Assembly: GCA_964480475.1 (NCBI GenBank)
Contig: CAYZPW010000009.1
Coordinates: 1-52,324 of the forward strand
DNA length: 52,324 nt
Direction: 5' to 3'
Origin: an uncultured bacterium
GTDB lineage: Bacteria; B130-G9
The notes beneath the pieces were generated by a model. That model was not told where the DNA came from, did not search any database, and worked only from the letters and a program-made list of their open reading frames with translations. Position 1 is the stretch's first letter. Each line of letters begins with the position of its first letter. Positions 1 through 51,131 of the stretch are shown here, piece by piece. The position numbers were made by a program, and so were the translations under genes.

Positions 1-63
1 AGCGCCTCGGCAGGACGTTGCTTGCGACCAACCACCTCGACTGGACGTCCGGGCGGGTCTGAG
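1..63 (+). pseudogene. Fragment of a DDE transposase gene (C-terminal region), cut short where a solo copy of the 27-bp palindromic repeat begins; about 90% identical to the inverted copy at 13955-14200
   Basis: In-frame translation reads ...ERLGRTLLATNHLDWTSGRV and then a TGA that lies inside the repeat sequence. The same stretch in the second copy (minus strand, 14052-14110) reads ERLARTLLVTNHLDWTSGRVIEAYRG..., which carries an IS4/IS701-like C-terminal motif. The fragment runs off the window start. Confidence 0.45.
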
Positions 64-76
64 ACACCGCCCCTAC
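50..76. repeat. Solo copy of the 27-bp GC-rich palindromic repeat (CGGGCGGGTCTGAGACACCGCCCCTAC), the same sequence that forms the terminal inverted repeats at 1205-1310
   Basis: Direct sequence match to 1284-1310 and to the reverse complement of 1205-1231 and 26275-26301. One CA/AC transposition at the gagacAccg position. Confidence 0.6.
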
Positions 77-134
77 ACAACCGCAACGACTTATGACCCA
101 GCCTCTTCTAGCCTGCCATCGCCCAAGCCGCTGG

Positions 135-1190
135 TCAGTTGGAGGTGCGTGGCTCGGCATAGATGGATTGATCGACGTAGAACGTCGGCTGCGCGAGGTC
201 TTCAGGCTCCAGCGATTTGCAGGCGGCGGCGAGTCGCCCATACAGCCTGACCATGCTGTATGAGTGCTCTATCTCCTCCACGATGGGGAACGTCTCGATG
301 TTGTAGCGGTCCGCAAATCCAGTCTCGTCGAGGTAAAGCGCCACGGCCTTGAGCGATTTGCTCTTAGTGCCCACGGCCGCTATGATCGTCGTGCCGTGAA
401 TCAAATCCTTCTGGTTCTCGCGGTCAGAGAGAAGAATCACATCTATTCGGGGCAGCAGTTCTGCGAGCTCAAGCGCCTCGTCCAGAGTGATCTGAGCGAG
501 CACGATGACGACGTTTGCGATGGTTGCGTGCGACGCCAACACCTGCTGAAGGGCGTCGGCCGGCTCCTCAAGCTCGATTGTCCGGTTCCCCTCGTCGTCC
601 CTCGTCCAGTCAACGATGAGCTCCTCGTCGTCCCTGGAGATGACCCCCGCAACAAAGACCGTCGCCTCGGTCGTCCCTTTGAGCATGAATCGGTCGAAGA
701 CAGCCTCGTGCGTCTCAACGTCAAGCAAGTTGGCGCAGAGGAAGCGGAATCGAGCCTCCTTCTGAAGCCGCTTGAGGTGGTTAAGGCCGAACGTGAAGTC
801 CTTGAGACCAAGCCCCAACGCATCGTAGGCCATCATGTTGAGCGCGGCTACTATGAACCACGACTTGAGCCTCTCAGGCTCGCAGTTGCCGTTGAAGAGG
901 TTGCCAGCGTCCAGAAGCAGCATATCATCCCGCCCGGATAGACACTGGAGGATGAAGGTTCTGCGCCTCTCGAAGCCCCCGAGCTGAGGGTCCGAGCAGC
1001 TGGACCGCCTCATCGTCCCGAACGTGTTGCCGGTAAAGAAGGCTACGACGCTAGGCGTCGCCTCGACCTCGAAATCAACCTTCACGCTGACGGGTTCGTC
1101 CTGGGCGAGACAGGTGGAGGCCAACATAACCAACAGAATCAGGGACAGCGGGACGGTTGTAGAGGTGAGGCGTGGAGGTTGGGTCAGCAT
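135..1190 (-). CDS. Secreted 5'-nucleotidase/calcineurin-like metallophosphoesterase homolog; the canonical metal-binding motifs appear degenerate
   Basis: The ORF listed as 135-1343 most likely starts at the internal Met (MLTQPPRLTSTTVPLSLILLVMLASTCLAQ), which gives a signal peptide. The longer N-terminus only arises by reading through the repeat element at 1205-1310. Motifs LLLDAGNLFNG and MAYDALGLGLKDF resemble the UshA-type DaGDqfqG and GNHEFD blocks, but with D-to-N and NHE-to-KDF substitutions. Confidence 0.5.
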   Translation of the reverse strand: MLTQPPRLTSTTVPLSLILLVMLASTCLAQDEPVSVKVDFEVEATPSVVAFFTGNTFGTMRRSSCSDPQLGGFERRRTFILQCLSGRDDMLLLDAGNLFNGNCEPERLKSWFIVAALNMMAYDALGLGLKDFTFGLNHLKRLQKEARFRFLCANLLDVETHEAVFDRFMLKGTTEATVFVAGVISRDDEELIVDWTRDDEGNRTIELEEPADALQQVLASHATIANVVIVLAQITLDEALELAELLPRIDVILLSDRENQKDLIHGTTIIAAVGTKSKSLKAVALYLDETGFADRYNIETFPIVEEIEHSYSMVRLYGRLAAACKSLEPEDLAQPTFYVDQSIYAEPRTSN

Positions 1191-1204
1191 TACGAAGGTG
1201 TCGC

Positions 1205-1310
1205 GTAGGGGCGTGGTCTCGGACCCGCCCGTTCTGATTGATTGCCGTTGCGAGAATGCCTTATCCGACAGGATTGATGTAAGCGGGCGGGTCTGAGACC
1301 ACGCCCCTAC
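1205..1310. mobile_element. 106-bp MITE-like element with 27-bp terminal inverted repeats (GTAGGGGCGTGGTCTCgGACCCGCCCG ... CGGGCGGGTCTGAGACCACGCCCCTAC) flanking 52 bp of non-coding sequence
   Basis: The two ends are reverse complements of each other apart from one mismatch. The same 27-mer recurs as solo copies at 50-76 and 26275-26301. The element sits immediately upstream of the 135-1190 gene. Confidence 0.65.
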
Positions 1311-1339
1311 ATGCCCGCGCGCGTGAGGTCTTCCCACGA

Positions 1340-3055
1340 TCATCCTCGGCCTTCGGTCTTGCTCAAGAGGAAATCGCTGATGATGAGGTCATCGATGCCG
1401 GTCGTGTAGAAGCACCGCAGCGCGTCCCTTGGCGTGCACACAATCGGCTCTCCTTCTATGCTCAACGACGTGTTTAGGACGACGGGCACGCCGGTCAGCT
1501 TCTCGAATTCGGCGATGAGGTTGTAGTAGAGCGGGTCCGTATCCTTCTCGACGGTTTGAACGCGGCCCGTGCCGTCAACGTGAGTAACCGACGGGATGAC
1601 GTCGCGCTTTTCGGGCAGCACGTTACAGACGAGCAGCATGAACGGCGAGGGGTATGAGAAATCGAAATACTCGGACACCTTCTCGGCGAGAATCGACAGC
1701 CCAAACGGCCTGAACGACTTGCGGCGCTTGACAAGCTCGTTCACGACGTCTTTCATCTTGGGGTCGCGTGGGTCTGCCAAGATGCTCCGCTTGCCGAGTG
1801 CGTGGGGGCCAAACTCCATCCTGTCCTGAAACCACCCGACGATGCGCCCTTGGGACACCAGCCTCGCGGCCTCAGCGGAGGGGTCCTTGACCTCCCGATA
1901 CGGGACCTTCGAGAGCTTCAGGAACGCCTCGATCTCGTCGTGGCTGTATTCCGGGCCCCAGAAGGCATGGTCCATCACGAAGTCGCGCTTGTTGCCCAGA
2001 AGACCGTTGTGGATGTAGAACGCCGCTCCAACCGCCGCCCCCGCGTCGTTGGCCGCCGGCTGGATGAACGTTTCCTCGAACCCGGCCTGCTTCAAGAGCA
2101 TCCCGTTGGCAACGGACTTAAGCGCGACGCCGCCGCTGAGGCAGAGCTTCCTGCTGCCCGTCACCTTGTGCAGATAGTTGGCCATGTGGACCAAGGCGTC
2201 CTCGAGCCGGCGCTGACCCCCCCGGGCGACCTCCGCGTGGCGGTCGGTTACCTCTTGGCCAGGCTTTCTGTCGGCGCCAAATGTCAGGAGAAACTTGTCG
2301 GAGTAGTAAGGAATCTCGCCATACTGATAATTGAAGAACGACATGTCCATCTCATATTCGCCGTCGGGGGCCAGCCTTATCACGCGCTTGAACTCGTTGT
2401 AGTACTTGTCAGTCTTCCCATACGACGACAGGCCCATCACCTCGTATTCATCGGAGTTGCGCTTGAACCCCAGGAACATCGTCAGCGTGGCGTAGAACGC
2501 GCCCAGCGAGAACGGAAAGTATATCTCCTTGAACTTGCTGATCTTGTTCCCGCGACCAGATGCAAGCAGCGTCGTCGTCCACTCGCCGATGCCATCTGCG
2601 CTCAGTATCGCCGCCTCATCGAAGGGCGAAATCGTGAAACAGCTGTATGCCTGCGCGATGTGGTGCTCGACGAACTGGAACTTGAACCGCGCTTGCTGGG
2701 GCTCGTAGCCCGGCAACTTCTTGAGATAAGACTTCGCGACCATCATCGACGGTATGCGGCTGGAGCACTCCGCCTGACCACGAAAGAAAGTGAGAGTCCT
2801 GGGGAAATGCCTCGCCAGGTGGAATATCTTGCGGTGGAGGTTCAGCCAGGGATTGACGCAGAAGCCGACCCACGCCACGTCGTTGATCGAGGCGCCGATC
2901 TCGTTGAGGCAGTAGCTGATTGCGCCGTACGGAAAGCCGCCATCGTGCTTCTTGCGTGTGAATCGTTCTTCCTCCGCCGCCGCCATGAGCTTACCATCGA
3001 CGAGCACACAGGCCGCGGAATCGTGCTGGAATGCAGTAATCCCGAGTATGATCAT
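1340..3055 (-). CDS. Carbamoyltransferase of the NodU/CmcH (HypF-like) family
   Basis: 571 aa. Sequence is typical of the family throughout (MIILGITAFQHDSAACVL..., the YEVMGLSSYG block, and a C-terminal ...HVDGTGRVQTV... region). Confidence 0.85.
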   Translation of the reverse strand: MIILGITAFQHDSAACVLVDGKLMAAAEEERFTRKKHDGGFPYGAISYCLNEIGASINDVAWVGFCVNPWLNLHRKIFHLARHFPRTLTFFRGQAECSSRIPSMMVAKSYLKKLPGYEPQQARFKFQFVEHHIAQAYSCFTISPFDEAAILSADGIGEWTTTLLASGRGNKISKFKEIYFPFSLGAFYATLTMFLGFKRNSDEYEVMGLSSYGKTDKYYNEFKRVIRLAPDGEYEMDMSFFNYQYGEIPYYSDKFLLTFGADRKPGQEVTDRHAEVARGGQRRLEDALVHMANYLHKVTGSRKLCLSGGVALKSVANGMLLKQAGFEETFIQPAANDAGAAVGAAFYIHNGLLGNKRDFVMDHAFWGPEYSHDEIEAFLKLSKVPYREVKDPSAEAARLVSQGRIVGWFQDRMEFGPHALGKRSILADPRDPKMKDVVNELVKRRKSFRPFGLSILAEKVSEYFDFSYPSPFMLLVCNVLPEKRDVIPSVTHVDGTGRVQTVEKDTDPLYYNLIAEFEKLTGVPVVLNTSLSIEGEPIVCTPRDALRCFYTTGIDDLIISDFLLSKTEGRG

Positions 3056-5487: not shown

Positions 5488-5680
5488 TAGATAATCTCCC
5501 GCTTCACGAAGCCGGCTCGCGACCGCCTGGTATCAGTTTTCACCGCCGCAATGGTGAGGCAATATAGGCAACATCGGCGCTTTCTGTCAACCTCGCCAGA
5601 CGAGGAGCTTTCGCAATCGCTGCGCTCCGGATTCTCACCTGGGCGGGGCTTAAGAGGCTGGGACAGAATTCGGTATTGGC

Positions 5681-5760
5681 GTTGTAGGGGCGGTGCTTGC
5701 CCCGCCCTAAAGGCAGACGGGTGCAGTTCGCCGCGCGGCGAACACCCCTACAGGACCATT
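5681..5760. repeat. REP-like cluster of GC-rich palindromes bounded by TGTAGGGG...CCCCTACA, including the perfect 18-bp palindrome GTTCGCCGCGCGGCGAAC
   Basis: Read directly from the sequence. It shares its GTAGGGGCG ends with the MITE-like family. It sits in the intergenic space between the methyltransferase stop and the start of the 811-aa gene. Confidence 0.5.
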
Positions 5761-5786
5761 CGCCCTGCCACGGCCAGCAGGCAGAC

Positions 5787-6599
5787 TTACGCTCTCTTCG
5801 TGCCGCAGAGAACCATCCGAAAGCTATCTGAATTGAGCGGCTTGCCGGTAGAGTGGTCGGCGAAGGCCGAGGTAACGTCAAGCCCGAAACGAACAAGGAT
5901 GCCGCTCATTTCCTCGCGAGTGTACAGCCGGACCCAACCGTGCGAACGATGGAACCGCCGTTCCATCCAGCGAAAGGACCAAACCTCTGTGGTCAAGCGA
6001 GATTCACGCCGGTCATAGCGGAAACGATAGACTCCGGCGGCGCCGGTGTCGAGCTGAAACTTCGTGCAAGGACACTTCTTGATCGCCCATCCCGCGTTTA
6101 TGACGCCAATCACGAACTTGCCGTCGTGGGCTAGCACTCTGGCCAGCTCCGCCAGCATACGTTCATTAGCCGCGTCCGTCTCCTGATAGCCGATACCACC
6201 CTCCGCCATAGCTATCACGCACTCAAAACTGTCGTCAGCAAAGGGCAAGGCAGCCACATCGGCTGTCAGGAAATCGGTCTTGATGTCCCAGGACTCTGCC
6301 TGCCTTTTGGCGAGGCGCGGCAGAATGCGCGAAACGTCAACACCCGCAACCACGAAGCCTTCTTTGGACAACAGCAGGCTATGGCGGCCAAAGCCGCACC
6401 CAGCATCCAGCAGCCGTCTTCCGTGTCCTGGCCCAAGGACATCAACTAAGAAATCAACTTCGCGTCTGGTTATCTTGGGCTTGGCCCACGGAGCGTAAAC
6501 GACCCCTTCGCCTAGCCTGTCCAGCTCCTTCTTCCACCAACCGGGTTCAATCCCCTTTGGTAAGCCCATTTCAGAGTAACGTAACCGAGGCTTCTCCAC
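5787..6599 (-). CDS. Class I SAM-dependent methyltransferase
   Basis: Motif I reads LLDAGCGFGRHS, and the protein has the overall Rossmann methyltransferase layout. Confidence 0.8.
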   Translation of the reverse strand: MEKPRLRYSEMGLPKGIEPGWWKKELDRLGEGVVYAPWAKPKITRREVDFLVDVLGPGHGRRLLDAGCGFGRHSLLLSKEGFVVAGVDVSRILPRLAKRQAESWDIKTDFLTADVAALPFADDSFECVIAMAEGGIGYQETDAANERMLAELARVLAHDGKFVIGVINAGWAIKKCPCTKFQLDTGAAGVYRFRYDRRESRLTTEVWSFRWMERRFHRSHGWVRLYTREEMSGILVRFGLDVTSAFADHSTGKPLNSDSFRMVLCGTKRA

Positions 6600-6620
6600 C
6601 TGAGTTCACGTCTCGGGGTT

Positions 6621-7217
6621 CTATTGCGATTCTGATGCGGTATAGTCCGCGTCATATTGGGCGATGCGCTCTTTGAGAGCCATGAATATGATGTGGTTGA
6701 GCATCGCGTGGATGTCCTCAATCTGTTGCATGTGGTCGCTCGGGACGAGGACATGCACCTTGGCAACCTCCTTTGCCTCGCCGCCGTTCCTGCCCGAAAA
6801 GAGGATAGATGTTGCGCCCGCCTCGTTCGCCGTTTTGAACGCGTTGATCACGTTTGGCGACATCCCGGAAAAGCTTAGGCCCAGGGCCACGTCGCCCCGC
6901 TGGACAAAGTTCTTGAGCTGCTCGCCGAACGTGTTCTTGTAGTCGGTGTCGTTGGCCCAGGCCGTGATTAGCGGCGCGTTGTCGGATAGGCACAGCGCCT
7001 TGAACCGACGCTTGTTGGGCGCCACCGTGCCTTTCGCCGCATCGCACGCGATATGTGATGCAGTGGCCGCGCTTCCACCATTACCGAAAACGAAGAGGCA
7101 CTTATTGTTCTTGTATGCCTCGAAGATTATGTCGAGGACCTCATGGATCTTCACGACGGGTATGTTGCCTATCGTCTCCTTTATCTGCTCCAGGTAGGCG
7201 TTAATGAAATCAAGCAT
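6621..7217 (-). CDS. gmhA: SIS-domain sedoheptulose-7-phosphate isomerase (GmhA/DiaA family)
   Basis: LFVFGNGGSAATASHIACD and the downstream ...LGLSFSGMSPNV... block are classic for GmhA. Confidence 0.75.
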   Translation of the reverse strand: MLDFINAYLEQIKETIGNIPVVKIHEVLDIIFEAYKNNKCLFVFGNGGSAATASHIACDAAKGTVAPNKRRFKALCLSDNAPLITAWANDTDYKNTFGEQLKNFVQRGDVALGLSFSGMSPNVINAFKTANEAGATSILFSGRNGGEAKEVAKVHVLVPSDHMQQIEDIHAMLNHIIFMALKERIAQYDADYTASESQ

Positions 7218-7239
7218 GGCAATCTCCCGTTTCTTACCA

Positions 7240-10520: not shown

Positions 10521-10613
10521 ATTTCGAGTATTCCAGCGATCAGGCAGGCATGGCGACCTGGCGTTACGCTATGAAGCAATCCTGGTATAGGCTGGCTAAA
10601 GAGGCAAAAGGGA

Positions 10614-11684: not shown

Positions 11685-11914
11685 ACCTCCTGAGTAAACG
11701 TTCTCAGCTACTAATACACCTATTAGAATCTAGACCCGCCCATTATGAAAGGCCACATTGCGCGTGTCAAGGTCTGCCGCGCTAATAGCTGCACCTTGCG
11801 ACAGGAGGTCCCGGCACAAGTGGAACTGATGCGACCTGGCCGCTCGTTCCAGTTGACAAGGCAACGCTGGTCGCCTAACTTGAGTCTCCGACTTAAGAGG
11901 GTGACTTAATACGA

Positions 11915-13489: not shown

Positions 13490-13686
13490 TGCTCTAGCGG
13501 CTCCGTGAGCCGCGCCTACTCAGTCTCCTTCACCTTCTCCGCTTCGGCCCTTTCAAGCCCGGCACGGTTCCGCTCGCTCTGGCCCCTGCTGATTAGCGCC
13601 ATTGCTAGGGCCTGAGTTTCCTAGTTATGTGATTGGCGCGGTCGTAATTGTCCCTTTAGAGCGGCATATTGGGGAATGGGTTTGTA

Positions 13687-13944: not shown

Positions 13945-13954
13945 CTTCTGGTCA

Positions 13955-14200: not shown

Positions 14201-14211
14201 GCGTCATCTCC

Positions 14212-24004: not shown

Positions 24005-25534
24005 TTACAGCATCGGCAGCATGATGGTAAAACTGGTTCCCCGGCCCTCAATGCTCTCCACCTCGATGGTACCGGAATGCTGCTCGATGATGGCGTAACA
24101 GATGGAAAGGCCCAATCCGACACCTTCTCCCACCGGTGAAGTCGTGAAAAAAGGGTCAAATATCTTATCGATGTTCTCTTCTACGATACCGTGGCCCGTG
24201 TCGGCCACTCGAATCAACGCGCTGCATTTCGTTTTCTGGACGGATACCGTTAGGTGCCCGCCGTCCGGCATCACTTTGAGCCCGTTCAGAAAGAGGTTGA
24301 TGAAAACCTGTTGCAGCAGACCGGCACTACCGTTGATGAACACCGGCTGCGCGGGGAAATCTGATTTGAGCTTGATTTTTTGGATGTTGATCTGGTTGGA
24401 AATGAGCGCAATGGTCTCTCTGATGATATCAAGAAGATTGACCTCCTCCCTGTTCGATCCCTCTGGAGGGCGCGCGAATTTTAGCAGATTCTCGATAACG
24501 ACGGATGCTCTCTCAATCCCCTCGTGGAGCTTCCTGGCGCATTCGATGCGGAAATCCGGGGAGATGTCATCCGCCAAAAGGAATTGGGCGGCTGAAGAAC
24601 AGATCGCCAGCGGGTTTCGAATCTCATGGGCGATCCCACCGGCCATCACGCCCAGCGCAGCAAATTTTTGCGACTGGCGAAGCTGCATCTCCATTTTGCG
24701 GCGCTCGGTATGATCTCTGCCCACGACCACGAATCCGGCTGTCTCCAACTGCTGGTCTTTCATCGGCGAACAAACCCAGGAAACATGGGTATCGAGCCCC
24801 TTTTTCGTGACGAGGTCCCACTCCCCGGTGACCGAATCTCTCCGAGTTCTCATCTCGGAAAATATCTTCCTCACGTTTTCCTGGTGATCCTTGGCGCATA
24901 ACCTGTAGAAAACCTGGTTTTTTACCTCAGTGAAACTGTATCCGGAGATTCTCTCCGCTGCCGGATTCCAAGAGAGTATCCTTCCGTCGGTGTCGGTGGA
25001 CAACATAATGTCACTGGCGCTGTCGAAGATACTCGCCAGATGGCGTTGAACGCGTTGAATCTCATCGCTCAATTGGATCTGTTCGGTTACATCATCCATT
25101 AAGAGCATTACGTTCTCAACGCTCCGCTGCCACTCAAACGGGACAATGCGATAATAGTAAGTCCGCATCGAAACGCCCGGAGATCGAAAGAACATCCGCT
25201 GCCCTTTGGTGGGCTGGCTCGAACGGAAGACCTGGCGAATCTGGCCGATGATATCCATCTTTTCGATAATCACGGCGGGAAAGATCTTCTGAAGCGGGAA
25301 ACCGATGGTGTCGGATGCCGACCGCCGGCTCTTCTTCAGAAAGTTCCGATTGGCAAGCACGACACGCATGTTCTGATCGATCATCAGAACCGAAGACGGT
25401 ATCGTATCCAGCAGCATGGCATACAGCTTCTGATGCCAGTCGGAGGCGCCGTCGAGTACAATTCCGGTCTTAGTTGAATCCGGCAAAGAGGCCTTTCGCA
25501 TTTCCGACGGATGGCCGTTGGCTTGATCTGTCAT
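24005..25534 (-). CDS. Sensor histidine kinase with PAS domains, a HisKA domain and a HATPase_c domain
   Basis: H-box HEIRNPLA. HATPase_c G-boxes (…DTGHGI…, …GLGLSI…). PAS-like repeats upstream of these. The start is proposed at MTDQANG so that it overlaps the upstream gene by 4 bp. Confidence 0.8.
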   Translation of the reverse strand: MTDQANGHPSEMRKASLPDSTKTGIVLDGASDWHQKLYAMLLDTIPSSVLMIDQNMRVVLANRNFLKKSRRSASDTIGFPLQKIFPAVIIEKMDIIGQIRQVFRSSQPTKGQRMFFRSPGVSMRTYYYRIVPFEWQRSVENVMLLMDDVTEQIQLSDEIQRVQRHLASIFDSASDIMLSTDTDGRILSWNPAAERISGYSFTEVKNQVFYRLCAKDHQENVRKIFSEMRTRRDSVTGEWDLVTKKGLDTHVSWVCSPMKDQQLETAGFVVVGRDHTERRKMEMQLRQSQKFAALGVMAGGIAHEIRNPLAICSSAAQFLLADDISPDFRIECARKLHEGIERASVVIENLLKFARPPEGSNREEVNLLDIIRETIALISNQINIQKIKLKSDFPAQPVFINGSAGLLQQVFINLFLNGLKVMPDGGHLTVSVQKTKCSALIRVADTGHGIVEENIDKIFDPFFTTSPVGEGVGLGLSICYAIIEQHSGTIEVESIEGRGTSFTIMLPML

Positions 25535-26373
25535 GTGATCCAGGCTACCTCGTCCGGTCGCTCGGGTGTAACGAAGTTGTACGGTGGCCACGGGCCGCTC
25601 AAAAGCAGTTTATGGGGCCCGCGCTTGCTGACACGCCGGAACGCTTGCCGAAATGATTCAACCGACGCTCGGCGGACGAGAAAATAGAGGGAGAGGACCC
25701 GATTGCTAAATGGGGACACCGTCTGACGTGTCGGACCTGTCAGACCCGTCGGAGCCAATTCCGATTTGAACCGGACAAAGAGCCCAGAAAACGCAGATCG
25801 AATCTGTGCGATTATGTGCTCAATCTCTTTTAGATTACGGTCCTCGCGGGAATAATGGGCTTTGCGTGCCGACAAGTACTGCTTGCCGGACCGCGGGAAT
25901 TGAGTATTCGGACCAGTCGGACGAGTCGGACGAGTCCGACGAGTCGGACCAGGAGGGCATTGAGCTTCTGACATCATGACCCGGATTCCCATCTCCACGC
26001 TGCCCTTGAGCTCGCTTAACAGGGACAAATAGTAGTGGGCACGCTGCCCCAAATACCGCCCGACCTCTTCCTTGTCCGGGAACAGACAGCCGTAGCGCAT
26101 CGGGATGACGGTGCGGTCGTGGTTAAAGCGTTCGATGATCCTTTGGTAAGCCTGAATGCGCGTGATATCCGGTGTCAGATTCGGATGGACAGATGGAGAG
26201 ACCGAGGCGCCGAGACCATTGTGCGATACAACCATAATCGGTTGGCCGTCAACCCCTGTGAGGCGGACGGTTGTGTAGGGGCGTGGTCTCAGACCCGCCC
26301 GCTGTGCCCCTGCAAGGCGGACGGCTGGCGACTTTTCCTCGTTGGCAAATATGCAATAAAGGAGGTATTTCAT
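25531..26373 (-). CDS. GvpF/L-family paralog that carries an in-frame insertion of the 27-bp palindromic repeat plus two 9-bp microsatellite tracts
   Basis: KYLLYCIF at the N-terminus and LSGPWPPYNFV at the C-terminus. Residues AGAQRAGLRPRPYTTVRL are encoded by the solo repeat at 26275-26301 together with an 18-bp direct duplication. PTRRTRPTRPTGP and PTGLTGPTRQT are encoded by GTCGGACNN 9-mers. Confidence 0.7.
   Translation of the reverse strand: MKYLLYCIFANEEKSPAVRLAGAQRAGLRPRPYTTVRLTGVDGQPIMVVSHNGLGASVSPSVHPNLTPDITRIQAYQRIIERFNHDRTVIPMRYGCLFPDKEEVGRYLGQRAHYYLSLLSELKGSVEMGIRVMMSEAQCPPGPTRRTRPTRPTGPNTQFPRSGKQYLSARKAHYSREDRNLKEIEHIIAQIRSAFSGLFVRFKSELAPTGLTGPTRQTVSPFSNRVLSLYFLVRRASVESFRQAFRRVSKRGPHKLLLSGPWPPYNFVTPERPDEVAWIT
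26275..26301. repeat. Solo copy of the 27-bp GC-rich palindromic repeat, flanked by a roughly 20-bp imperfect direct duplication (cccctgtgaggcggacggttgt / cccctgcaaggcggacggctgg), lying inside the coding sequence
   Basis: GTAGGGGCGTGGTCTCAGACCCGCCCG is identical to the reverse complement of 1284-1310. Confidence 0.6.
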
Positions 26374-40653: not shown

Positions 40654-41043
40654 ATGTTGGCAGTGCTCGTTGTTATCCACGTTTTGCTGTGTATCGCCCT
40701 TGTGGCTATCATCCTGCTTCAGGGCGGGAAGGGCGCCGATTTGGCAAGCGTTTTTGGCGGGGGCACTTCCGGGACAGCATTCGGCGTAACGGGCGCCGCG
40801 CCATTCATCGCCAAAGCGACCACGAGTGTTGCTGTCGGGTTCCTGGTGATGTGTGTTATTCTCTCGTATTTCTACACCCCGAGTGGCTCGCGTTCGGTGA
40901 TACAGAAGCAAGGCGCAGCTCAAGAGAGCTCGCAGACGGCGCCGAGCTCTTTGGAAGAGGAACCAGCTGCGGCAGCTTCGGTCGGCACCGTCGGGACCGG
41001 GGCGACCGCGGGGCAGGTCGAGGACTTTCCAGCAACGCCGTAA
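40654..41043 (+). CDS. secG: Preprotein translocase subunit SecG
   Basis: The N-terminal transmembrane helix is followed by QGGKGADLASVFGGG. The gene sits in the conserved tpiA-secG-tRNA-Leu context. Confidence 0.85.
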   Translation: MLAVLVVIHVLLCIALVAIILLQGGKGADLASVFGGGTSGTAFGVTGAAPFIAKATTSVAVGFLVMCVILSYFYTPSGSRSVIQKQGAAQESSQTAPSSLEEEPAAAASVGTVGTGATAGQVEDFPATP

Positions 41044-42055: not shown

Positions 42056-45000
42056 TCATAGCCCTATCTCCATCGTGGTGGCATCAGGTTCCTTCCGAGC
42101 CTCTTCAGCACGGACTTGGTCATATACCTGCTTCAGAAGAGACCGCCTGACTTCGTCCTGAAAGTCCTTCTCATTCATGAACTTGGCGGTCATCTCCTCG
42201 TTCTGCTCCATGCGCTCGATGAAAAGCCCTTCGAGCGCCTTTGAGAAGACCCAGTTGAAGTTCTCCATCGTGTTTGCTAGAGCGGCCTGACGAAGTGCAG
42301 CATCGGCCAGCGCATCCTCTCGAATGGAGTCGAAGAACAATTGGTCTCCGAGCTTGAATTCGGTCCCGAATCTCTCGTTCAGTATGTCGATGAGCAGCGA
42401 AAGCTGGACGGTTTCATCGTGAGTCGTCCCGGTGCCGACCGAGGTGGGCCCGGAGACCTCGCCGCCCGTGCCCTTCTCCAGCCGGATGGAGCCCTCGCCG
42501 ATCTTCTGGAGCCGGTAGTATTTCAGGGCCACCTCGTCGTCGAAATCATAGGGAGGCCCGATGTCTCTCCTGGGTAACTTTGTGAGCAGGAGGCGTATAT
42601 AAGAGTAGAGCTTCTCGAGATCCGAATCCGTGAACGGGATCACCTGGGAAAGGAAGGCGTAGAGGTTACGATAAGCGACCAGGACCTTCCGAAATTCGTC
42701 GCGAGTTTCGGCATCGAGCTGGTTGTAACGGGCCACCGCCGGGTCTATGCAGGCATTCATTTTCGCGTGGTCGCCCTGAGTGTGGCGCCGCCTGGGCTTG
42801 TAGAATACTCTGCAGAACTCCTCGACCTCCGGCCTGTAATAAACCTGCTGAGCATCAAGGCGCGCCTGCAGTTCATAGAGCTGTTTCGCCTCGGCGCGCT
42901 CACCAACCAGGGTCTGCTCATAATATGGCTGAAAGGCGTCGAGGATCTCCTCGGGCTCGTTGACGAAATCAAGGATGAAGGTGTCCTCTTTGCCGGTGTG
43001 GGTCCTGTTGAGACGGCTGAGGGCCTGCACGGCCTGCAGCCCGGCGAGCCGTTTGTCCACATACATCGTGTGCAGCAGCGGCTGATCGAAGCCAGTCTGA
43101 TACTTCTCGGCGACGAGCAACACCTGATATTCATCCCTCGCGAACCGCGCGGGGAGTTCCTTCTCCCTAATCCCCTGATTCATCCTGACCTCGGTGTATT
43201 CAACATCGGGAATGTCAGGGTCGATGACCGTGCCGGAGAACGCCACGAGTGCCTTGATGCTGTAACCCCTCTTCGCAATGTACTTGTCGAAAGCCTGTTT
43301 GTACCGGACGGCGTGCAGCCGGCTTGCCGTCAGGACCATTGCTTTTGCCTTGCCGCCGATCCTATGACGTGTGAAGCGCTGGAAATGCTCAACCATGACC
43401 TCGGTTTTCTGCGCGATGTTATGCGGGTGAAGGCTCATAAAACGGGCAAGGGCGCGACCTGCCTTCTTCTTGTCCACATCCGGATCGTCCTCTATGGACT
43501 TCACGAGGCGATAGTAGGCTTTGTATGTAATGTAGTTCATTAGAACGTCGAGGATGAAGCCCTCCTCAATCGCCTGACGCATGCTGTAAAGATGAAATGG
43601 GCGGGGCTTGTCATCCGGTCCAAGCACCCCGAACACCTCGAGGGTCTTGTATTTGGGCGTAGCGGTGAAAGCGAAGAAGCTGATGTTGGGCTGTTTGCCC
43701 CGCTTGGCCATCGTGCGGAGGATCTCCTCCTCGTGGTCCGGCAGAACCTCATCAATCCCGCGTTCTTCGGCCTCCTCTCGCATCGCGGCTCCCGCAAGCA
43801 CGCCCTTCAGCTCCGTGGCCGATTGCCCGCCCTGGGAGCTGTGCGCCTCGTCAATGATCACCGCGTACTTGCGCTTCGGCAGGTCTCCTATTTTCTCCGT
43901 CACAAACGGGAACTTCTGGAGCGTCGTGATCACAATTGGTGAGGCCGAAGCGAGCGCGTCCGCAAGTTGGGTGGAGTTTATGTCTATCTTCTGAACGACG
44001 CCCTGTTTATGCTCGAACTGGTAGATCGTGTTCTGCAGCTGCTGATCGAGCACGAGCCGATCCGTCACGACGACAACGGAATCGAAGACCTTCTCATCCC
44101 TGTCGTCATAAAGGCTTGCCAGACGGTGCGCAAGCCACGCGATGGAGTTGGATTTGCCACTTCCCGCCGAGTGCTGCACCAGGTAGTTGGTGCCAGCTCC
44201 TTTGTCGTGCGCATCGCGCACAAGTTTGCGCACGCAGTCGAGTTGGTGATACCGTGGGAAGATCATCGTCTCCCTCTTGACCAACTTGCTTCCGAACCTT
44301 TTCTCCTCGACCTGGAGGTGGATGAAACGCGCGAGGATGTCGAGGAAGCTATCCCGGGCCAGAACCTCTTCCCAGAGATACGCTGTCTTGTGACCGCCAG
44401 GATTCGGGGGATTTCCCGCTCCAAATCCATCGCCACGGTTGAAAGGCAGGAAGAAGGCGCTCTTCCCGAGGCGAGTCGTCATGTGAACTTCATCAGGGTC
44501 CACGGCGAAATGAACGAGTGCCCGTCTCTTAAACTGAAAGATGAGGTCCCTGGAGTCACGGTCGTTGCGATACTGGCGGACTGCATCCTTCCAGGTCTGC
44601 CCCGTCATCGGGTTTTTCAGTTCGAGCGTCGCTACGGGTATGCCGTTCAAACTCAGAACAACATCGAGCGTGTTACCATGCTCTCTGCTGTATTTGACTT
44701 GCCGCGTCACGGTCAACCTGTTTGCGGCATATAGCTCCTGAGTATCCGGATTGAGCCCGCTGGCCGGCGCGAAGAAAGCGACGCGGAAGAGCTTGCCGAA
44801 ACACTTGAATCCGTGCCGCAGCACACTGAGGCACCCCTCGTGCTCCGAATTCAGCGCACGGCAGAGGTCTTCAATGAGCGTTACCCGCGCCTTGTCTTTG
44901 TGCAGGCTCTCAAGATAAGACCACTCCTCGGGCTGGGTCTTCCGGATGAAGGCGATTACATCATCGGGAAAGAGCGCCACGTCAGGATCAAAGGCACTTG

Positions 45001-45106
45001 GATCGCCCTTTTCATAGCCGCCGGTAAAGAGTAGGTGATCCTCAATCGCGGTCTCGAAACTGTATTCTGTATATCCCCAGGCATCAGGAAATCGCTTTCC
45101 ATTCAA
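42056..45106 (-). CDS. hsdR: Type I restriction enzyme R subunit (HsdR)
   Basis: 1016 aa. Contains an SF2 helicase/DEAD-like ATPase region and the general layout of an EcoR124-type R subunit. Confidence 0.85.
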   Translation of the reverse strand: MNGKRFPDAWGYTEYSFETAIEDHLLFTGGYEKGDPSAFDPDVALFPDDVIAFIRKTQPEEWSYLESLHKDKARVTLIEDLCRALNSEHEGCLSVLRHGFKCFGKLFRVAFFAPASGLNPDTQELYAANRLTVTRQVKYSREHGNTLDVVLSLNGIPVATLELKNPMTGQTWKDAVRQYRNDRDSRDLIFQFKRRALVHFAVDPDEVHMTTRLGKSAFFLPFNRGDGFGAGNPPNPGGHKTAYLWEEVLARDSFLDILARFIHLQVEEKRFGSKLVKRETMIFPRYHQLDCVRKLVRDAHDKGAGTNYLVQHSAGSGKSNSIAWLAHRLASLYDDRDEKVFDSVVVVTDRLVLDQQLQNTIYQFEHKQGVVQKIDINSTQLADALASASPIVITTLQKFPFVTEKIGDLPKRKYAVIIDEAHSSQGGQSATELKGVLAGAAMREEAEERGIDEVLPDHEEEILRTMAKRGKQPNISFFAFTATPKYKTLEVFGVLGPDDKPRPFHLYSMRQAIEEGFILDVLMNYITYKAYYRLVKSIEDDPDVDKKKAGRALARFMSLHPHNIAQKTEVMVEHFQRFTRHRIGGKAKAMVLTASRLHAVRYKQAFDKYIAKRGYSIKALVAFSGTVIDPDIPDVEYTEVRMNQGIREKELPARFARDEYQVLLVAEKYQTGFDQPLLHTMYVDKRLAGLQAVQALSRLNRTHTGKEDTFILDFVNEPEEILDAFQPYYEQTLVGERAEAKQLYELQARLDAQQVYYRPEVEEFCRVFYKPRRRHTQGDHAKMNACIDPAVARYNQLDAETRDEFRKVLVAYRNLYAFLSQVIPFTDSDLEKLYSYIRLLLTKLPRRDIGPPYDFDDEVALKYYRLQKIGEGSIRLEKGTGGEVSGPTSVGTGTTHDETVQLSLLIDILNERFGTEFKLGDQLFFDSIREDALADAALRQAALANTMENFNWVFSKALEGLFIERMEQNEEMTAKFMNEKDFQDEVRRSLLKQVYDQVRAEEARKEPDATTMEIGL

Positions 45107-46807: not shown

Positions 46808-48052
46808 TTATTCATTGAATGCCTCCCGCACGTCTATCTTGCCGGTCACCGCAGCGGAGATCAGGGCCGTGCGGTATTCTTCTAGAAGTTGCACTGACCT
46901 TGCGATAATCCGCTCAATCTTTCGCTCAGAATACACATGATTCGAGACACATGCTTGTGCCTCCATTGGTGGTACAGGTATTGGCTCTTTTAGTAGAGTG
47001 CCTGCGTTGAGTGGGCGATTACGGCCTGCGGCTCCCCGTGAGTGTTGGTTTAGCAAAAAGTCCCCGGTCTTCGTGGTAAAGAAAGCAAACAGATATGCTG
47101 TCTCCATAAGGTTGGGTTTCCCGCGAATAATCGGGTAGCGGTGCGAAACAACACAACCCGCTTCTTCCTCGCTGGCGACGGCGACAGCGCCCTCCCAAGC
47201 GAATTGCCCACTTAGAATCAGGTCATCATTTTCTATCCAGAAGAAATTGGAGTCGCCAAGATCTGCGCCGATAGTCGGCTCCTTGGGGAAGATTCCGCGC
47301 CCTCGGTTATATAACCCAACTGGGATGTACACGTCATCGTCCCTTCGGGGAATAGGACGGAAGATCTGGTCCGCAACATGCCCTATCCGCATAGTCTGAG
47401 TTGATGCATCCCGGACAGCATCATGAATGAGAGCGGCCCGTTTTTCTCGAAGGAGCTCGATCAGCCGCTCCTTCTTCGCGATCAACACGTCAATCTTCGC
47501 CGTCTCTCGGTCGAGGAACGAGGCGATCGCGCGTTGTTCGGGGAGTGGGGCGACCCAGACAGGTACGCAGCTTAGCTGGCTCTGGTTGATTGCTGGATAA
47601 ACCACTCCTTGGGAACAAGCAACAATAGTCTCGATGACGGCGCTTGACTGAATCATCCTGAAAAGGAACTTAGGTAGAATAGCAGAGCGAGGTCGAAGCA
47701 CAGCAAAACCGGTCGAGACGATCAAGTTATTCGCTGGATCCGGCAGATGTGCAACTGCCCTTAAGTACGTCCGCACAGTGGAGACAATTGTATCCCCATA
47801 TCTGACAATTCGGCGAGCACGGCTCGGAGCGCTTTGGAAGTCAATAACCTGGGGTTGGGCGATTCTCGAATTCGAATCCACGGTGGCTATGTCCAAGTAT
47901 TGCATCTCATATCGTGGTGCAGTGTCTTCGGATAGCGCTTCATTATTGATCTCACAGATGTCTTTTAGTCGCTTAACCTCCCAATGTCTTGGTATCTCGC
48001 CCAGCCAGTCGATGCCGGAGTCGTTGTATTCGGGATAGGGCGGCCAGGTCAT
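46808..48052 (-). CDS. hsdS: Type I restriction-modification specificity subunit (HsdS) with two target-recognition domains
   Basis: Typical organisation of two target-recognition domains plus conserved central and C-terminal helices. Confidence 0.85.
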   Translation of the reverse strand: MTWPPYPEYNDSGIDWLGEIPRHWEVKRLKDICEINNEALSEDTAPRYEMQYLDIATVDSNSRIAQPQVIDFQSAPSRARRIVRYGDTIVSTVRTYLRAVAHLPDPANNLIVSTGFAVLRPRSAILPKFLFRMIQSSAVIETIVACSQGVVYPAINQSQLSCVPVWVAPLPEQRAIASFLDRETAKIDVLIAKKERLIELLREKRAALIHDAVRDASTQTMRIGHVADQIFRPIPRRDDDVYIPVGLYNRGRGIFPKEPTIGADLGDSNFFWIENDDLILSGQFAWEGAVAVASEEEAGCVVSHRYPIIRGKPNLMETAYLFAFFTTKTGDFLLNQHSRGAAGRNRPLNAGTLLKEPIPVPPMEAQACVSNHVYSERKIERIIARSVQLLEEYRTALISAAVTGKIDVREAFNE

Positions 48053-49122
48053 TCGGTCTTTCTCCCGACCGATTTCGAGCCGGTCTTCGGCTTGTTTCTT
48101 GCGGATTTTAGCTGCTTAGCGGAGTTTCGAAGATCATCGAAGTACCGCTTTTCAGCGTCGTCTTCCGCCGCGAGCCGCCGGCGTTCCGCAAAAGCCTCAT
48201 ATTGCTGATCAGCCCATTTCTGAGCGGTCTCATGGCTGGTTGAGCCGGAGCCACCGAGCACGGGGAGTTCCGTATCCCTCAAGAATTTGTCAAGAAACAC
48301 CTCCCAATCGCGCATGCGGATATCCTGCCGCCGCTGGGCGCGGAACTCGGCCTGGTCCAGGAACATGACCGTAATCCGATTGAGCGTGTCGATTTCCTTC
48401 GCGTCCAAGTAGTTTTTCGCTGTGATGATGTCTCGCTTGAGCACACGACTGCCCTTCCACGAGGTCAGGCCCATGTTGGCCTTGTGCGCGTCGGCGCGAC
48501 GCCGAACGATCTCCGCCGCGGTCATGCCCGTTGCCGCGTAGTGAATCTTGTTCTGCGTGGTGGCGAAAAAGATCTGTGTCTCCTGGTCGCCCTCCCGGTA
48601 GTCGATAGCGAGTGCAAAAATCTCCCGTATGCGTTGGTAAACCCGCGCCTCGCTTGCGCGAATCTCGCGGATCCGTGCCAGCAACTCGTCAAAATAATCA
48701 GCTAGCTGGTTATGACCCTTGAGGCGTTCGTCATCTAGCGTAAAGCCTTTGACGAGGTATTCGCGGAGGCGTTCGGTAGCCCACTGGCGAAACATTACAC
48801 CCCGTGGCGACCGCACCCGGTAGCCAACGGCCAGAATCATGTCAAGATTGTAGTATTTGACCGGACGCTGGACCTGCCGAGAGCCTTCCTGTCGAACCAT
48901 TAAGTATTCCTTAATAGTTGCCTCGGCGCGCAGCTCGTTTTCTTTCAGTATGTTACGAATGTGGATGTTGATGTTGGGGACAGAAGTTTCGTAAAGATCA
49001 GCCATCATTGCCTGTGTCAGCCAGGCCGTCTCGTCCTCGAGTCTGACAAGAATCCGATTACAGCCGTCATCGGTCTGGTAAACGACTACTTGGCTGCCAG
49101 GTTCATTCTCTTTCTCGGTCAT
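48049..49122 (-). CDS. RhuM-family protein, a common passenger of hsdM-hsdS loci
   Basis: The block KYYNLDMILAVGYRVRSPRGVMFRQWATERLREYLVKGF is characteristic of the family. Confidence 0.7.
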   Translation of the reverse strand: MTEKENEPGSQVVVYQTDDGCNRILVRLEDETAWLTQAMMADLYETSVPNINIHIRNILKENELRAEATIKEYLMVRQEGSRQVQRPVKYYNLDMILAVGYRVRSPRGVMFRQWATERLREYLVKGFTLDDERLKGHNQLADYFDELLARIREIRASEARVYQRIREIFALAIDYREGDQETQIFFATTQNKIHYAATGMTAAEIVRRRADAHKANMGLTSWKGSRVLKRDIITAKNYLDAKEIDTLNRITVMFLDQAEFRAQRRQDIRMRDWEVFLDKFLRDTELPVLGGSGSTSHETAQKWADQQYEAFAERRRLAAEDDAEKRYFDDLRNSAKQLKSARNKPKTGSKSVGRKTE

Positions 49123-51131
49123 TCGGTCATCTCCCCGAGCATATCGGCGATCTCCTTCTCGACCTGGCTGATATCGGCCTCAATCGCGTCAAGCGGCCTG
49201 GGCGGCTTGTATTTGTAGAAGTAGCGGTTGAAGTTAATCTCGTAGCCGACCTTCGTCTTCGATTCGTCGATCCAGGCGTCGGGCACGTGCGGCAGGACTT
49301 CCCGCTTCACGTATTCTTCGACGTCCTCCTTAAGCGGTACGTTCTCGTGGTCGCGGATCTCCGGGTCCGGCTCAGGATTGCCCTTGGAGTCGAGGCAGAC
49401 GTCGGCAGTCTCGTCGCGCTCCGCAAGCGCCATCAGGACCGCCTTAAATAGCGAAGCTGGAGCCTTGATACCGGCCGCTCTGAATGCTTGCTTAAGGAGA
49501 CTGCTGAACTCATCCCGGTTCTTGATTGAGCCTCTATCCGAGAGCGTCGAGAGAGCTTCGAGGATCGCCTGCTGCTGGAGTCTTCCCGCCTCAATCTCCA
49601 TCTCGATCAAGGCCTCGTCCCTCCGCTTCTTGCTCGTGGCTAGCGCGACGAAGGCTTTGGCCTCCTTCACACTGGCGAGGCGCTCCTCAGTAACCGCGAA
49701 GTTGAGCCTCAGCGGGCGTTCAACCGTTACTCGCCGGTAGCCGAAATGCTCGTTTTCAAAAATGCGCACGAACTCCCCCTCTCTGAAGTCACCGTAGAGG
49801 CGGGTTATCTCATCCCGCTGCCCCTCGCAGATCTCGTTGCGCTTGTTGCCCAGGCTCTTTCGCATCTTCTTGAAGAAGGAAGTCGCGTCAACGAGTTGTG
49901 TTTTGCCCCGGCGCTCGGTGGGCTTGCGGTTGGTGACAATCCAGAGGTAAGTGCTGATCCCCGTGTTGTAGAACATCTGGTCTGGAAGGGCGACGATCGC
50001 CTCCAGCCAGTCGTTCTCGATGATCCACTTCCGGATCTCGCTCTCGCCCGAGCCGGCGGAGCCGGTGAAGAGCGGAGAGCCATTGAAGACAATCGCCAGG
50101 CGTGTCCCTCCGTCGGAAGGGGCCTTCATCTTGCTGATCATGTGTTGAAGGAACAGAAGAGAGCCGTCGTTGATGCGAGGCAGTCCCGCCCCGAAGCGAC
50201 CGCCGAAGCCCTGCTCCTCGTGTTCCTTCTTGACGATGTTCTGCTGCGCCTCCCACTTCACGCCGAAGGGTGGATTGGCGAGCATGTAATCATATCTGCC
50301 AGCCGCAAAGTAGTCCTCCGTGAAGCTGTCACCAAGCCGGATGTGCTCGATGTCCTGTCCTTTGATCATCATGTCCGAGCCGCAGATAGCGTACGCCTGC
50401 TCGTTGTAATCCTGGCCAAATGCCTCGAGGCGCGCGTCGGGATTCAGCTCTCGCACAAACTCTTCGGAAACCGAGAGCATGCCGCCCGTCCCACAGGCCG
50501 GGTCAAAGAGGGTCTTGATGATGCCCCTGGTGGTGAGGATGTCGCTGTCGGGCAGGAATATGAGATTGACCATGAGACGAATGACCTCGCGTGGGGTGAA
50601 GTGATCTCCAGCCTCCTCGTTGCTCGCCTCATTGAAGCGGCGGATGAGCTCCTCGAAGATGTAGCCCATCTCGATGTTGGAGACGGTGTCGGGGTGCAGG
50701 TCGATCTCGCAGAACTTGGAGACGAGGAGAAAGAGGCGATTGGCCTTCTCCAGTTTGCCGATGTGCTCCTCGAAGCCGAAGTTGTCGATGATGTCGCGGG
50801 CGCGGCTTGAAAAGCCCTTGATGTAATGCGTCAGGTTGGCGGCGATGTTGTCTGGCTCTCCCTTGAGCTTCTGGAACGTGAAGCGACTCGTGTTGTGAAA
50901 CGCGTGGCCAGACACCTTGTTGAGGACTGGCTCGACGTTCTTGAACATGCCGCCCTCAAGGCTCTTGAGTCTTGCGAGGACCGCGTCCTTCGTGGGCAAC
51001 AGGACCCAGTCAAGGCGACGCAGGACGGTCATCGGTAGCATGACGTCTTTGTACTGGTTCGGGCGATACGGGCCGCGAAGCAAGTCCGCCACCGACCAGA
51101 TGAAACTGACTTTCTCTCCGAAGTTATTCAT
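49119..51131 (-). CDS. hsdM: Type I restriction-modification N6-adenine DNA methyltransferase (HsdM)
   Basis: Catalytic motif NPPFG within LANPPFGVKWE. An N-terminal HsdM-N region is present. Length 670 aa. Confidence 0.9.
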   Translation of the reverse strand: MNNFGEKVSFIWSVADLLRGPYRPNQYKDVMLPMTVLRRLDWVLLPTKDAVLARLKSLEGGMFKNVEPVLNKVSGHAFHNTSRFTFQKLKGEPDNIAANLTHYIKGFSSRARDIIDNFGFEEHIGKLEKANRLFLLVSKFCEIDLHPDTVSNIEMGYIFEELIRRFNEASNEEAGDHFTPREVIRLMVNLIFLPDSDILTTRGIIKTLFDPACGTGGMLSVSEEFVRELNPDARLEAFGQDYNEQAYAICGSDMMIKGQDIEHIRLGDSFTEDYFAAGRYDYMLANPPFGVKWEAQQNIVKKEHEEQGFGGRFGAGLPRINDGSLLFLQHMISKMKAPSDGGTRLAIVFNGSPLFTGSAGSGESEIRKWIIENDWLEAIVALPDQMFYNTGISTYLWIVTNRKPTERRGKTQLVDATSFFKKMRKSLGNKRNEICEGQRDEITRLYGDFREGEFVRIFENEHFGYRRVTVERPLRLNFAVTEERLASVKEAKAFVALATSKKRRDEALIEMEIEAGRLQQQAILEALSTLSDRGSIKNRDEFSSLLKQAFRAAGIKAPASLFKAVLMALAERDETADVCLDSKGNPEPDPEIRDHENVPLKEDVEEYVKREVLPHVPDAWIDESKTKVGYEINFNRYFYKYKPPRPLDAIEADISQVEKEIADMLGEMTE

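Follow-up and report, generated by a model that had tools for sequence, protein, structure and literature searches.

GTAG-headed palindromic repeats and their head-outward doublets in a contig of an uncultured bacterium: probable REPs with RAYT-associated counterparts in other genomes

What kind of element is the 106-bp palindrome at positions 1205–1310 of contig CAYZPW010000009.1 (GenBank assembly GCA_964480475.1, an uncultured bacterium of GTDB lineage B130-G9), and how has it spread? The stretch analyzed, called the window below, is the whole 52,324-bp contig, and its position 1 is a contig end. An earlier note, made from the sequence alone, had described a family of palindromic repeats resembling repetitive extragenic palindromes (REPs) or miniature inverted-repeat transposable elements (MITEs), in solo form and as one complete 106-bp element with 27-bp inverted ends. 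A REP-like family in both forms was indeed recovered: the 27-mer GTAGGGGCGKKGTCTCRGACCCGCCCG (also written GTAGGGGCGTGGTCTCAGACCCGCCCG), hereafter F1, has four copies in the window (0–2 mismatches each) and no match in 100 dinucleotide-preserving shuffles of it, while the 9-mer GTAGGGGCG was observed five times against 0.22 expected occurrences. The 27-mers are probably GTAG-tagged REPs, and the 106-bp element a head-outward inverted doublet of them (a REPIN-like dimer, or one like a bacterial interspersed mosaic element, BIME) that would be copied by a REP-associated tyrosine transposase (RAYT). The F1 copies, all placed by motif match, and the parts of the doublet are the following:

1205 to 1231, plus strand: left F1 REP of the doublet, GTAG head outward
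1232 to 1283, no strand: doublet spacer, 52 nt
1284 to 1310, minus strand: right F1 REP of the doublet, GTAG head outward
50 to 76, minus strand: solo F1 REP GTAGGGGCGGTGTCTCAGACCCGCCCG, orthologue of one arm of a full doublet in a related genome
26275 to 26301, plus strand: F1 copy within a coding sequence

The arms of the doublet are 96% complementary, lie 52 nt apart and have starts 79 nt apart, in agreement with the complete element of the earlier note. When folded, a single F1 copy leaves its GTAG head unpaired and forms behind it a GC-rich stem of 9 bp, with one bulged base and a loop of 3 nt (−8.9 kcal/mol as DNA), i.e., an imperfect palindrome within the 20–40 nt of REPs that folds as a stem-loop, and one strand of the 126-nt doublet region reaches −68.2 kcal/mol vs. 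−40.2 kcal/mol for shuffles (z = −8.3). The unpaired 5′ GTAG/GTRG of REPs is likewise present, as GTAGGGG starts all four F1 copies and also two other repeat types of the window (F3 and F4, see below). Most REPs of the window are extragenic, those at 50–76, 1205–1310, 5684–5751, and 41051–41182 being intergenic and the copy at 26275 being the intragenic exception, an exception of a known kind (PMC3733652; statements on this source refer to its text and supplements). The features of REPINs and BIMEs, namely inverted REPs at a regular spacing that fold as a single hairpin and are commoner than singletons, were found as well. An Rfam scan of the window retrieved two tRNAs only, with no family covering the repeats. 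Neither the F1 motif nor the doublet occurs in 2.9 million viral contigs or in a plasmid collection, and there is therefore no sign of a phage or plasmid vehicle.

The repeat is by no means confined to the few places in the window, a possibility that the earlier note had left standing: a scan for GTAGGGGCGNNGTCTCNGACCCGCCC over 185,579 species genomes found it in at least 91 stretches from at least 31 assemblies, where about 0.02 matches would be expected by chance (23 fixed bases, 596 Gb, both strands; our own arithmetic). Among the matches listed, most belong to Chloroflexota and others are labelled Myxococcota, Vampirovibrio, Proteobacteria, Deltaproteobacteria, Desulfuromonadales, and Bacillota. 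The assembly CBDVDH01 (labelled ‘uncultured bacterium’) accounts for 29 of the stretches listed and represents a close relative of the organism of the window, its contig 14 being 89% identical to window positions 51–1183 and 95% identical to positions 1317–13615. In the 29 blocks of this relative metagenome-assembled genome (MAG), which were chosen for containing matches (the genome of the window being seen through one contig only), about 50 F1 copies occur, mostly as doublets (16 by ungapped search and 5 with a 1-nt indel in the partner; spacing 77–83 nt), with about 14 other F1 copies, five of them cut by contig ends. The doublet of the window, spacer included, is 79–87% identical to these doublets. 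At the site corresponding to 1205–1310, the relative carries a different head-outward GTAG heterodimer, GTAGGGGTGCTGCTTGCTGCACCC ... GGGCGGGGCAAGCGCCGCCCCTAC (window 1140–1360 vs. locus L098 19170–19350), and the genes flanking this swapped dimer are about 89% and 95% identical between the two genomes. The F3/F4 dimer at 5684–5751, on the other hand, is conserved in the relative nearly base for base, and thus some copies appear old and stable while others were replaced recently.

The co-occurrence with RAYT-type transposases, which the earlier note had put forward as informative, was found in other genomes. RAYT genes are directly flanked by the F1 motif in three of them (loci L001, L061, and L047). 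In L001, from a Proteobacteria MAG, a doublet at 1797–1904 is followed by a gene of 171 aa (1914–2429), a REP at 2431 and a second doublet at 2478–2639; the encoded protein passes the cut-off of Pfam Y1_Tnp (28.6 bits vs. 23), and its best NCBIfam match is the REP-associated tyrosine transposase (REP_Tyr_transpos) with 74.5 bits, vs. 20.5 bits for IS200 and a cut-off of 80. L061 and L047, both Chloroflexota, show the same RAYT–REP association with further REP copies inside the RAYT reading frame, and their RAYTs are about 39% (L061) and about 50–56% (L047) identical to that of L001. The protein family is very large (at least 7,994 proteins at E ≤ 1e−5), many of its members bear the JGI label ‘REP element-mobilizing transposase RayT’, and a 13-member RAYT profile had a single PDB match, the E. 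coli TnpAREP (4ER8), in which both the HUH motif and the tyrosine region align. GTAG-headed hairpins, nearly all with the head GTAGGGGC, were present at 74 of 80 metagenomic RAYT loci, where the inner stems vary (GGTTTCAAACC, ACGGCATGCCGT, AATTCATGAATT, ACCGGCCGGT, and others) and are always perfectly complementary. These GTAGGGGC heads cluster at the 80 RAYT genes, with a density of 3.6 per kb within 200 bp, 0.5 per kb at 200–400 bp, and at most 0.2 per kb beyond. A RAYT gene flanked by the same REPs was counted in L001, L061, L047, and 49 of the 80 metagenomic loci, and the F3 type stands together with the type of the relative’s F5 arm beside RAYT genes in L174 and L119. The RAYT proteins also carry REP-derived in-frame peptides (RAGLKPAPT, VGAGFKPA, EDGRVGDAAPT) in a variable loop that follows directly on the HUH motif (L047 1580–2563, L061 2885–3571; proteins P0133, P0142, P0174, P0150, and P0242), and the RAYT of L047 contains three tandem 84-nt units.

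The mechanism that we propose is taken from the established biochemistry of RAYT/TnpAREP. A single-copy HUH/Y1 tyrosine transposase (the RAYT) would bind the folded single-stranded hairpin through its GTAG head and would cut beside this head, thereby copying doublets around the genome, a process that would normally leave no target duplication. In 18 of the 19 copies tested, the flanks share only chance-level repeats of 4–6 nt, and a target duplication was consequently rejected as a general feature of F1; we read its lack in these copies as expected for Y1 enzymes. GTAG-dependent binding and cleavage of F1 by a RAYT is suggested by the HUH motif and tyrosine conserved in the alignment and by the match to 4ER8, and we infer that such a RAYT acts or once acted in the lineage of the window. 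We conclude that F1–F4 belong to a superfamily of GTAGGGGC-headed REPs that has the RAYT clade of L001 as its partner enzyme. This superfamily is very widespread, with a constant head and outer stem (GTAGGGGC) and an inner stem that varies with full compensation.

The remaining REP types of the window include the palindrome cluster noticed earlier at 5681–5760, which proved to consist of two further GTAGGGG-headed hairpins, F3 and F4, with their heads facing outward:

5684 to 5707, plus strand: F3 REP GTAGGGGCGGTGCTTGCCCCGCCC, hairpin fold, kept in the relative
5726 to 5751, minus strand: F4 REP GTAGGGGTGTTCGCCGCGCGGCGAAC, head-outward heterodimer with F3
5654 to 5672, plus strand: sequence like box C (a terminal repeat described below) with 3 mismatches, 11 nt outside the F3 REP
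41051 to 41182, plus strand: F2 array, five head-to-tail 27-nt units, each GT(G/A)(G/A) followed by GGCGGGCTTTCYAGCCTGCC

The F2 units, headed by GTGG, GTAG, or GTAA, are placed between the stop of the open reading frame (ORF) at 40654..41043 and the tRNA-Leu(gag) at 41320–41406, and their stem has a G–T wobble on the plus strand of the array only. The F2 hairpin also occurs in the relative MAG (L030, L038, and L048). The GTAGGGG at 26429 was rejected as a REP, as it is coding sequence of a conserved GPWPPY motif.

When the copies of the relative were aligned, their homology was seen to extend well beyond the doublet, and many form non-coding units of about 265 bp. These are bounded by a 19-bp terminal inverted repeat (TIR), GAGGCTGGGTCATAAGTCG, here called box C, which lies on one side 10 nt outside a GTAG head and on the far side at the end of an arm of about 105 nt. 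Twelve pairings of inverted box C ends delimit elements of 255–360 bp, most of them 264–268 bp, and in 9 of the 12 a 4-bp direct repeat (CTTG, TTCT, GGAA, TCCC, TTCC, GGCA, TTCC, GGAA, and CCTG) abuts both ends, exactly or shifted by a single base. Joining the flanks rebuilds, in most of the nine, the hairpin of another REP type, F2 or F3: GTAGGGGCGGTG-CTTG and CTTG-GCCCGCCC join to F3, GGCGGGCT-TTCC and TTCC-AGCCTGCC to F2. Several of the composite elements, which have an F1 doublet inside, and the box C sequences next to the F1 copies of the window are located as follows:

L010, 3149 to 3415: composite element
L026, 1414 to 1678: composite element
L048, 2975 to 3229: composite element
L072, 1188 to 1455: composite element
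Window, 77 to 117, minus strand: outer flank of the solo F1, with a linker (77–86), box C CGACTTATGACCCAGCCTC (87–105), and TTCT+AGCCTGCC (106–117)
Window, 1175 to 1194, plus strand: degenerate box C-like sequence, tentative (by-eye comparison), overlapping the ATG at 1188–1190 of gene 135..1190

Positions 106–117 look like half of an F2 hairpin, the putative insertion target of the composite. The complete doublet of the window has the degenerate box C on one side only (about 1175–1194); at the same place, the relative has a box C-like sequence without the ATG. Judged by its ends and flanks, the composite is a MITE-like element that would enter REP loops with a 4-bp duplication, and this duplication implies a DDE-type enzyme. 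The term ‘MITE-like’ of the earlier note is thus apt for the ~265-bp composite of the relative, with its 19-bp TIRs and 4-bp duplications, and not for the 106-bp element, the TIRs of which are the REPs themselves and which has no duplication. As some doublets occur without box C, the MITE is one vehicle of the doublet and does not define the family. No coding element with box C ends was present in the loci examined.

The intragenic copy at 26275–26301 lies, as noted earlier, within a coding sequence, which is that of gvpF (25531..26373, minus strand; Pfam GvpL_GvpF at residues 5–268). An alignment of GvpF with 11 homologues revealed an 18-residue insertion that is missing in 10 of them and common only to P0002. 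At the DNA level, it consists of the following parts:

26254 to 26270, plus strand: 17-bp target duplicate, copy 1, CCCTGTGAGGCGGACGG
26271 to 26307, plus strand: 37-nt insert composed of TTGT, the F1 REP (26275–26301), and CTGTGC
26308 to 26324, plus strand: 17-bp target duplicate, copy 2, CCCTGCAAGGCGGACGG

The insert and one copy of the duplicate add up to 54 nt, or 18 codons, and remain in frame. Empty sites in L095 and L097 read ...CCGTCCGCCT(TG/CA)C(G/A)GGG..., whereas the filled site of the window reads 17-mer, GCACAG, 27-mer, ACAA, and the 17-mer again; P0002 has the same filled structure plus 6 nt (60 nt in total), flanked on either side by a 17-mer variant of its own. A 99%-identical GvpF from a separate JGI sample has the same insertion, which is therefore not an assembly artefact. 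The mutual distances of P0001, P0002, and the pair P0003/P0004 are about equal (~77%), so that a single ancestral insertion is possible. Between the window and P0002, the 37-nt insert does not differ at all, vs. 84% identity for the whole genes, a contrast that is suggestive only. The 17-bp duplication is one single event and no trait of the family, and no target duplication of this length is described for REPs or Rickettsia palindromic elements (RPEs) in the REP/RPE literature examined. Both gvpF and the adjoining gvpL contain further small palindromic or tandem inserts (25721–25745, 25855–25971, and 27219–27243), built from GTCTGAC...GTCAGAC and repeated GACGAGTCG; they code for low-complexity segments (PTRRTRPTRPT and PTSLTCPTSLT) and are missing in most homologues.

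At the start of the window, the solo repeat abuts a piece of a transposase gene, and a second piece of this insertion sequence (IS) family lies further inside:

1 to 59, plus strand: IS1634-family transposase coding sequence (CDS) fragment that ends with RLGRTLLATNHLDWTSGRV and then a stop; its last 10 nt (50–59) are CGGGCGGGTC, common to the REP
13687 to 14142, minus strand: IS1634-family C-terminal remnant (NF033559 positions 347–482 of 483, 89 bits), with the decamer at 14050–14059

Positions 1–59 are 95% complementary to 14050–14108 (3 of the 59 positions differ), and the homology stops precisely at CGGGCGGGTC, which makes up the first 10 nt of the solo repeat, just as the earlier note had observed for the shared decamer; the fragment at 1–49 reads ...DWTSGRV, and its stop falls inside the repeat. 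The ‘intact copy’ that had been placed at about 14062 is in fact a C-terminal remnant of about 135 aa with an in-frame stop, scoring 89 bits where the full-length IS1634 profile has a cut-off of 100, and it does not belong to the repeat family, the sequence adjoining it being unlike F1 or box C. An N-terminal fragment of a DUF1565/beta-helix protein (14113–14577, minus strand) adjoins this remnant; a rearrangement linking the beta-helix fragment at 14113–14427 to the beta-helix gene of the relative was considered and rejected, the two being paralogues with 55–68% identity. At the site of the window start, the relative has a full doublet (L070 7181–7286, equal to L098 20419–20527) and no IS, followed by a gene for a beta-helix protein. 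Insertion sequences are known to use REPs as targets and as points of recombination (PMC1525189). In the simplest interpretation, a rearrangement in the lineage of the window fused the inner stem of a REP arm with the interior of an IS1634 transposase gene, and a junction through the 10-bp microhomology is plausible from the 49 nt available at the contig end.

The complete doublet itself is intergenic in a same-strand gene pair, with the stop of a carbamoyltransferase gene (1340..3055, minus strand) on one side and on the other the start, at 1190, of a UshA-like gene (135..1190, minus strand) with a signal-peptide-like beginning. The 402-aa ORF at 135..1343 reads through the doublet and has no Pfam match in that part, in line with the earlier suggestion that it arises only by translation through the element, and in the relative MAG the gene caller made a similar read-through call of 392 aa. 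As neither arm is followed by a T run, the doublet is not an intrinsic terminator. The best NCBIfam match of gene 135–1190 is the ‘UshA-like (seleno)protein’ NF041198 (119 bits, under the cut-off, about half of the profile); the gene ends at a TGA, and hairpin-forming repeat sequence occurs within the next 17 nt.

Several observations weigh against a RAYT-copied REP family. Searches of the window and of about 230 kb of the relative, by tblastn (queries: an E. coli RAYT and the RAYTs of L001 and L061) and by a six-frame profile HMM, detected no RAYT or other Y1 transposase; F1 itself occurs within 3 mismatches at none of the 80 metagenomic RAYT loci, which have close variants only (e.g., GTAGGGGCAGGTCTCAGACCTGCCC); four F1 copies in a 52-kb contig give no countable genome copy number; most doublets of the relative sit inside a TIR element with a 4-bp duplication, unlike a Y1 insertion; and the copy in gvpF is flanked by a 17-bp duplication that is not Y1-like either. 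The composite element raises the most serious alternative, which is in part a complement: the doublets may spread mainly as cargo of the ~265-bp MITE with GAGGCTGGGTCATAAGTCG ends, moved in trans by a DDE-type transposase, with the RAYT playing no current part. This has a substantial chance of being right, if somewhat short of even, given the twelve box C pairings, nine with 4-bp repeats and most of these with a rebuilt REP hairpin, the solo copy of the window with its box C end followed by TTCT+AGCCTGCC, and the documented use of REPs as targets by insertion sequences of five families (PMC1525189). It has to contend, however, with the failure to see any autonomous element with box C ends, with several doublets that have neither box C nor the long arm (L020, L033, and L057), with the degenerate, one-sided box C of the complete doublet of the window, and with the same REP standing beside RAYT genes in other phyla with quite different flanks.

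That the hairpins are not mobile DNA at all and instead are structural signals selected by the host (transcript-end stabilizers, attenuators, or protein-binding sites) is improbable in our view. The doublet between same-strand genes, the solo copy and F2 array just 3′ of genes, the 5684–5751 dimer kept almost base for base, and the secondary host roles known for REPs (PMC3733652) would suit such signals, but the doublet offers no intrinsic terminator, presence, absence, and replacement differ among close relatives, one copy breaks into a coding sequence, the link of the motif to RAYT genes is tight, and a host role would be compatible with a mobile origin anyway. An origin from the neighboring IS, by which the repeat would be a MITE derived from or mobilized by the adjacent transposase as the earlier note had proposed, can be regarded as very nearly dismissed. 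The transposase fragment does abut the solo copy and shares CGGGCGGGTC with it, but both pieces are IS1634 fragments (a DDE enzyme) and the junction lies inside the CDS and not at an IS end; the IS is missing from all fetched loci of the relative, which hold about 50 repeats, including the site where the relative has the full doublet; doublets lack a target duplication; and the repeat is found in at least 31 assemblies across phyla. No autonomous IS with the same ends was seen, the only transposase nearby being of the IS1634 family. The join at 50–59 could also be an artefact of assembly at a contig end, since position 1 is such an end, only 49 nt of IS are present and both partners are repeated sequences. 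The IS piece, however, differs from the other copy at 3 of 59 positions and is hence a separate copy, and the 10-nt overlap is shorter than the k-mers usual in assemblers; an artefact therefore seems rather unlikely, though a real concern.

With the GTAG-tagged REPs favored over these alternatives, the family can be placed among known systems. The GTAG REPs of Di Nocera, De Gregorio and Rocco (2013, PMC3733652) combine a GTAG head with an imperfect palindrome and occur as singletons, head-to-head dimers, and head-to-tail clusters, and one genome may hold several types. The repeats described here share with them the short GC-rich stem-loop that has an unpaired GTAG at one of its ends, the head-to-head dimers with conserved 20–100 bp spacers, the singletons and head-to-tail clusters, the multiple families per genome, occasional in-frame intragenic copies, and flanked RAYT genes. 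Chloroflexi are among the hosts listed there, whereas the present host belongs to an uncultured lineage. The string GTAGGGG is absent from the supplements of that work, and F1–F4 could be matched to none of its 24 families in a comparison with the supplements (its consensus figure lying outside this comparison); its text has no description of a constant GTAGGGGC head across many phyla, and a literature search on the string GTAGGGGC returned only unrelated primer matches. As in the REPIN–RAYT system (Bertels and Rainey 2011, PMC3116915; Bertels et al. 2017, PMC5581495), inverted REPs and their spacer form one long hairpin, doublets outnumber singletons, and a RAYT is the proposed mobilizer. Work chiefly on Escherichia and Pseudomonas describes the best-studied RAYTs associated with REPINs (Groups 2 and 3) as vertically inherited, and the present case differs in that the same 26-mer occurs in MAGs whose labels span at least six phyla or classes, with RAYTs of L001 and L061 that are about 39% identical. 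The E. coli REP/BIME system with TnpAREP (4ER8; PMC3479197, PMC8266576) has in common the GTAG head, the bulged stem, and an enzyme with HUH motif and catalytic tyrosine; the enzymes show low sequence similarity to TnpAREP (28 bits), the hairpins are unrelated in sequence, and the clade described here is known from sequence alone.

RPEs resemble the gvpF copy in being palindromes inserted in frame into an open gene, to which they add a short peptide (18 aa in GvpF), but the insertion in gvpF bears a 17-bp target duplication. IS1397 reportedly makes short (3–4 bp) target duplications, with which the 4-bp repeat flanking the box C composite is not out of keeping. The composite can also be compared with IS1397 and ISKpn1 in that these, too, insert specifically into REP hairpins (Tobes and Pareja 2006, PMC1525189), whereas the composite is a non-coding MITE of about 265 bp that itself carries a REP doublet. 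As far as the text of these sources goes, the head, bulged stem, spaced dimers, multiple families, in-frame copies, and flanked RAYTs all match PMC3733652, PMC2817692, PMC3116915, and PMC8266576, and the F1 family extends a known kind of element and defines no new one. Neither the occurrence of the same 26-mer beside RAYTs that are 39% to about 50–56% identical nor a REP doublet carried by a MITE targeting REP loops is described in the REP/RAYT literature examined.

Two observations concern the wider window. A segment of about 19.7 kb (13616–33313) has no counterpart at this place in the otherwise syntenic contig of the relative, as an island or an indel, and contains the IS1634 remnant together with a gas-vesicle gene cluster. 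This cluster comprises three gvpF/L genes as well as genes for AAA_5, CDC48-like, and ArsA-like ATPases, for a sigma-54 activator, and for a PAS histidine kinase. On the minus strand, positions 42056–51131 encode a type I restriction-modification system (hsdR 42056..45106, hsdS 46808..48052, and hsdM 49119..51131).

All of this could be drawn into one joint reading, which we offer as speculative and would not expect to hold in full: a pan-bacterial REP–RAYT superfamily in which the constant GTAGGGGC head is read by the enzyme while the inner stem drifts freely, in which identical 26-mers in at least six phyla or classes beside about 39–55% identical RAYTs reflect horizontal spread or extreme conservation, in which hairpins were repeatedly recruited as in-frame segments (GvpF and the RAYT loop), and for which the 17-bp duplication marks a second, non-Y1 route. 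If this were true, identical 26-mers across phyla would run against the ‘strictly vertical’ picture of REPINs. How REPs spread is an open question in the field (PMC8266576), and the analysis provides two leads, the constant GTAGGGGC head across phyla and a MITE that has a REP doublet as cargo and carries it into loops of further REPs, neither of which alters the basic picture of REPs. For annotation, the hairpins create false long ORFs (402 aa here and 392 aa in the relative) and add peptides such as RAGLRPRPY to real proteins, and recognizing the family prevents such mis-annotation of MAGs. The gvpF gene gives a clean pair of filled and empty sites for an in-frame REP insertion, REP dimers turn over at one intergenic site between genomes with flanks that are about 89–95% identical, and an uncultured, gas-vesicle-bearing lineage is added to the hosts of GTAG REPs.

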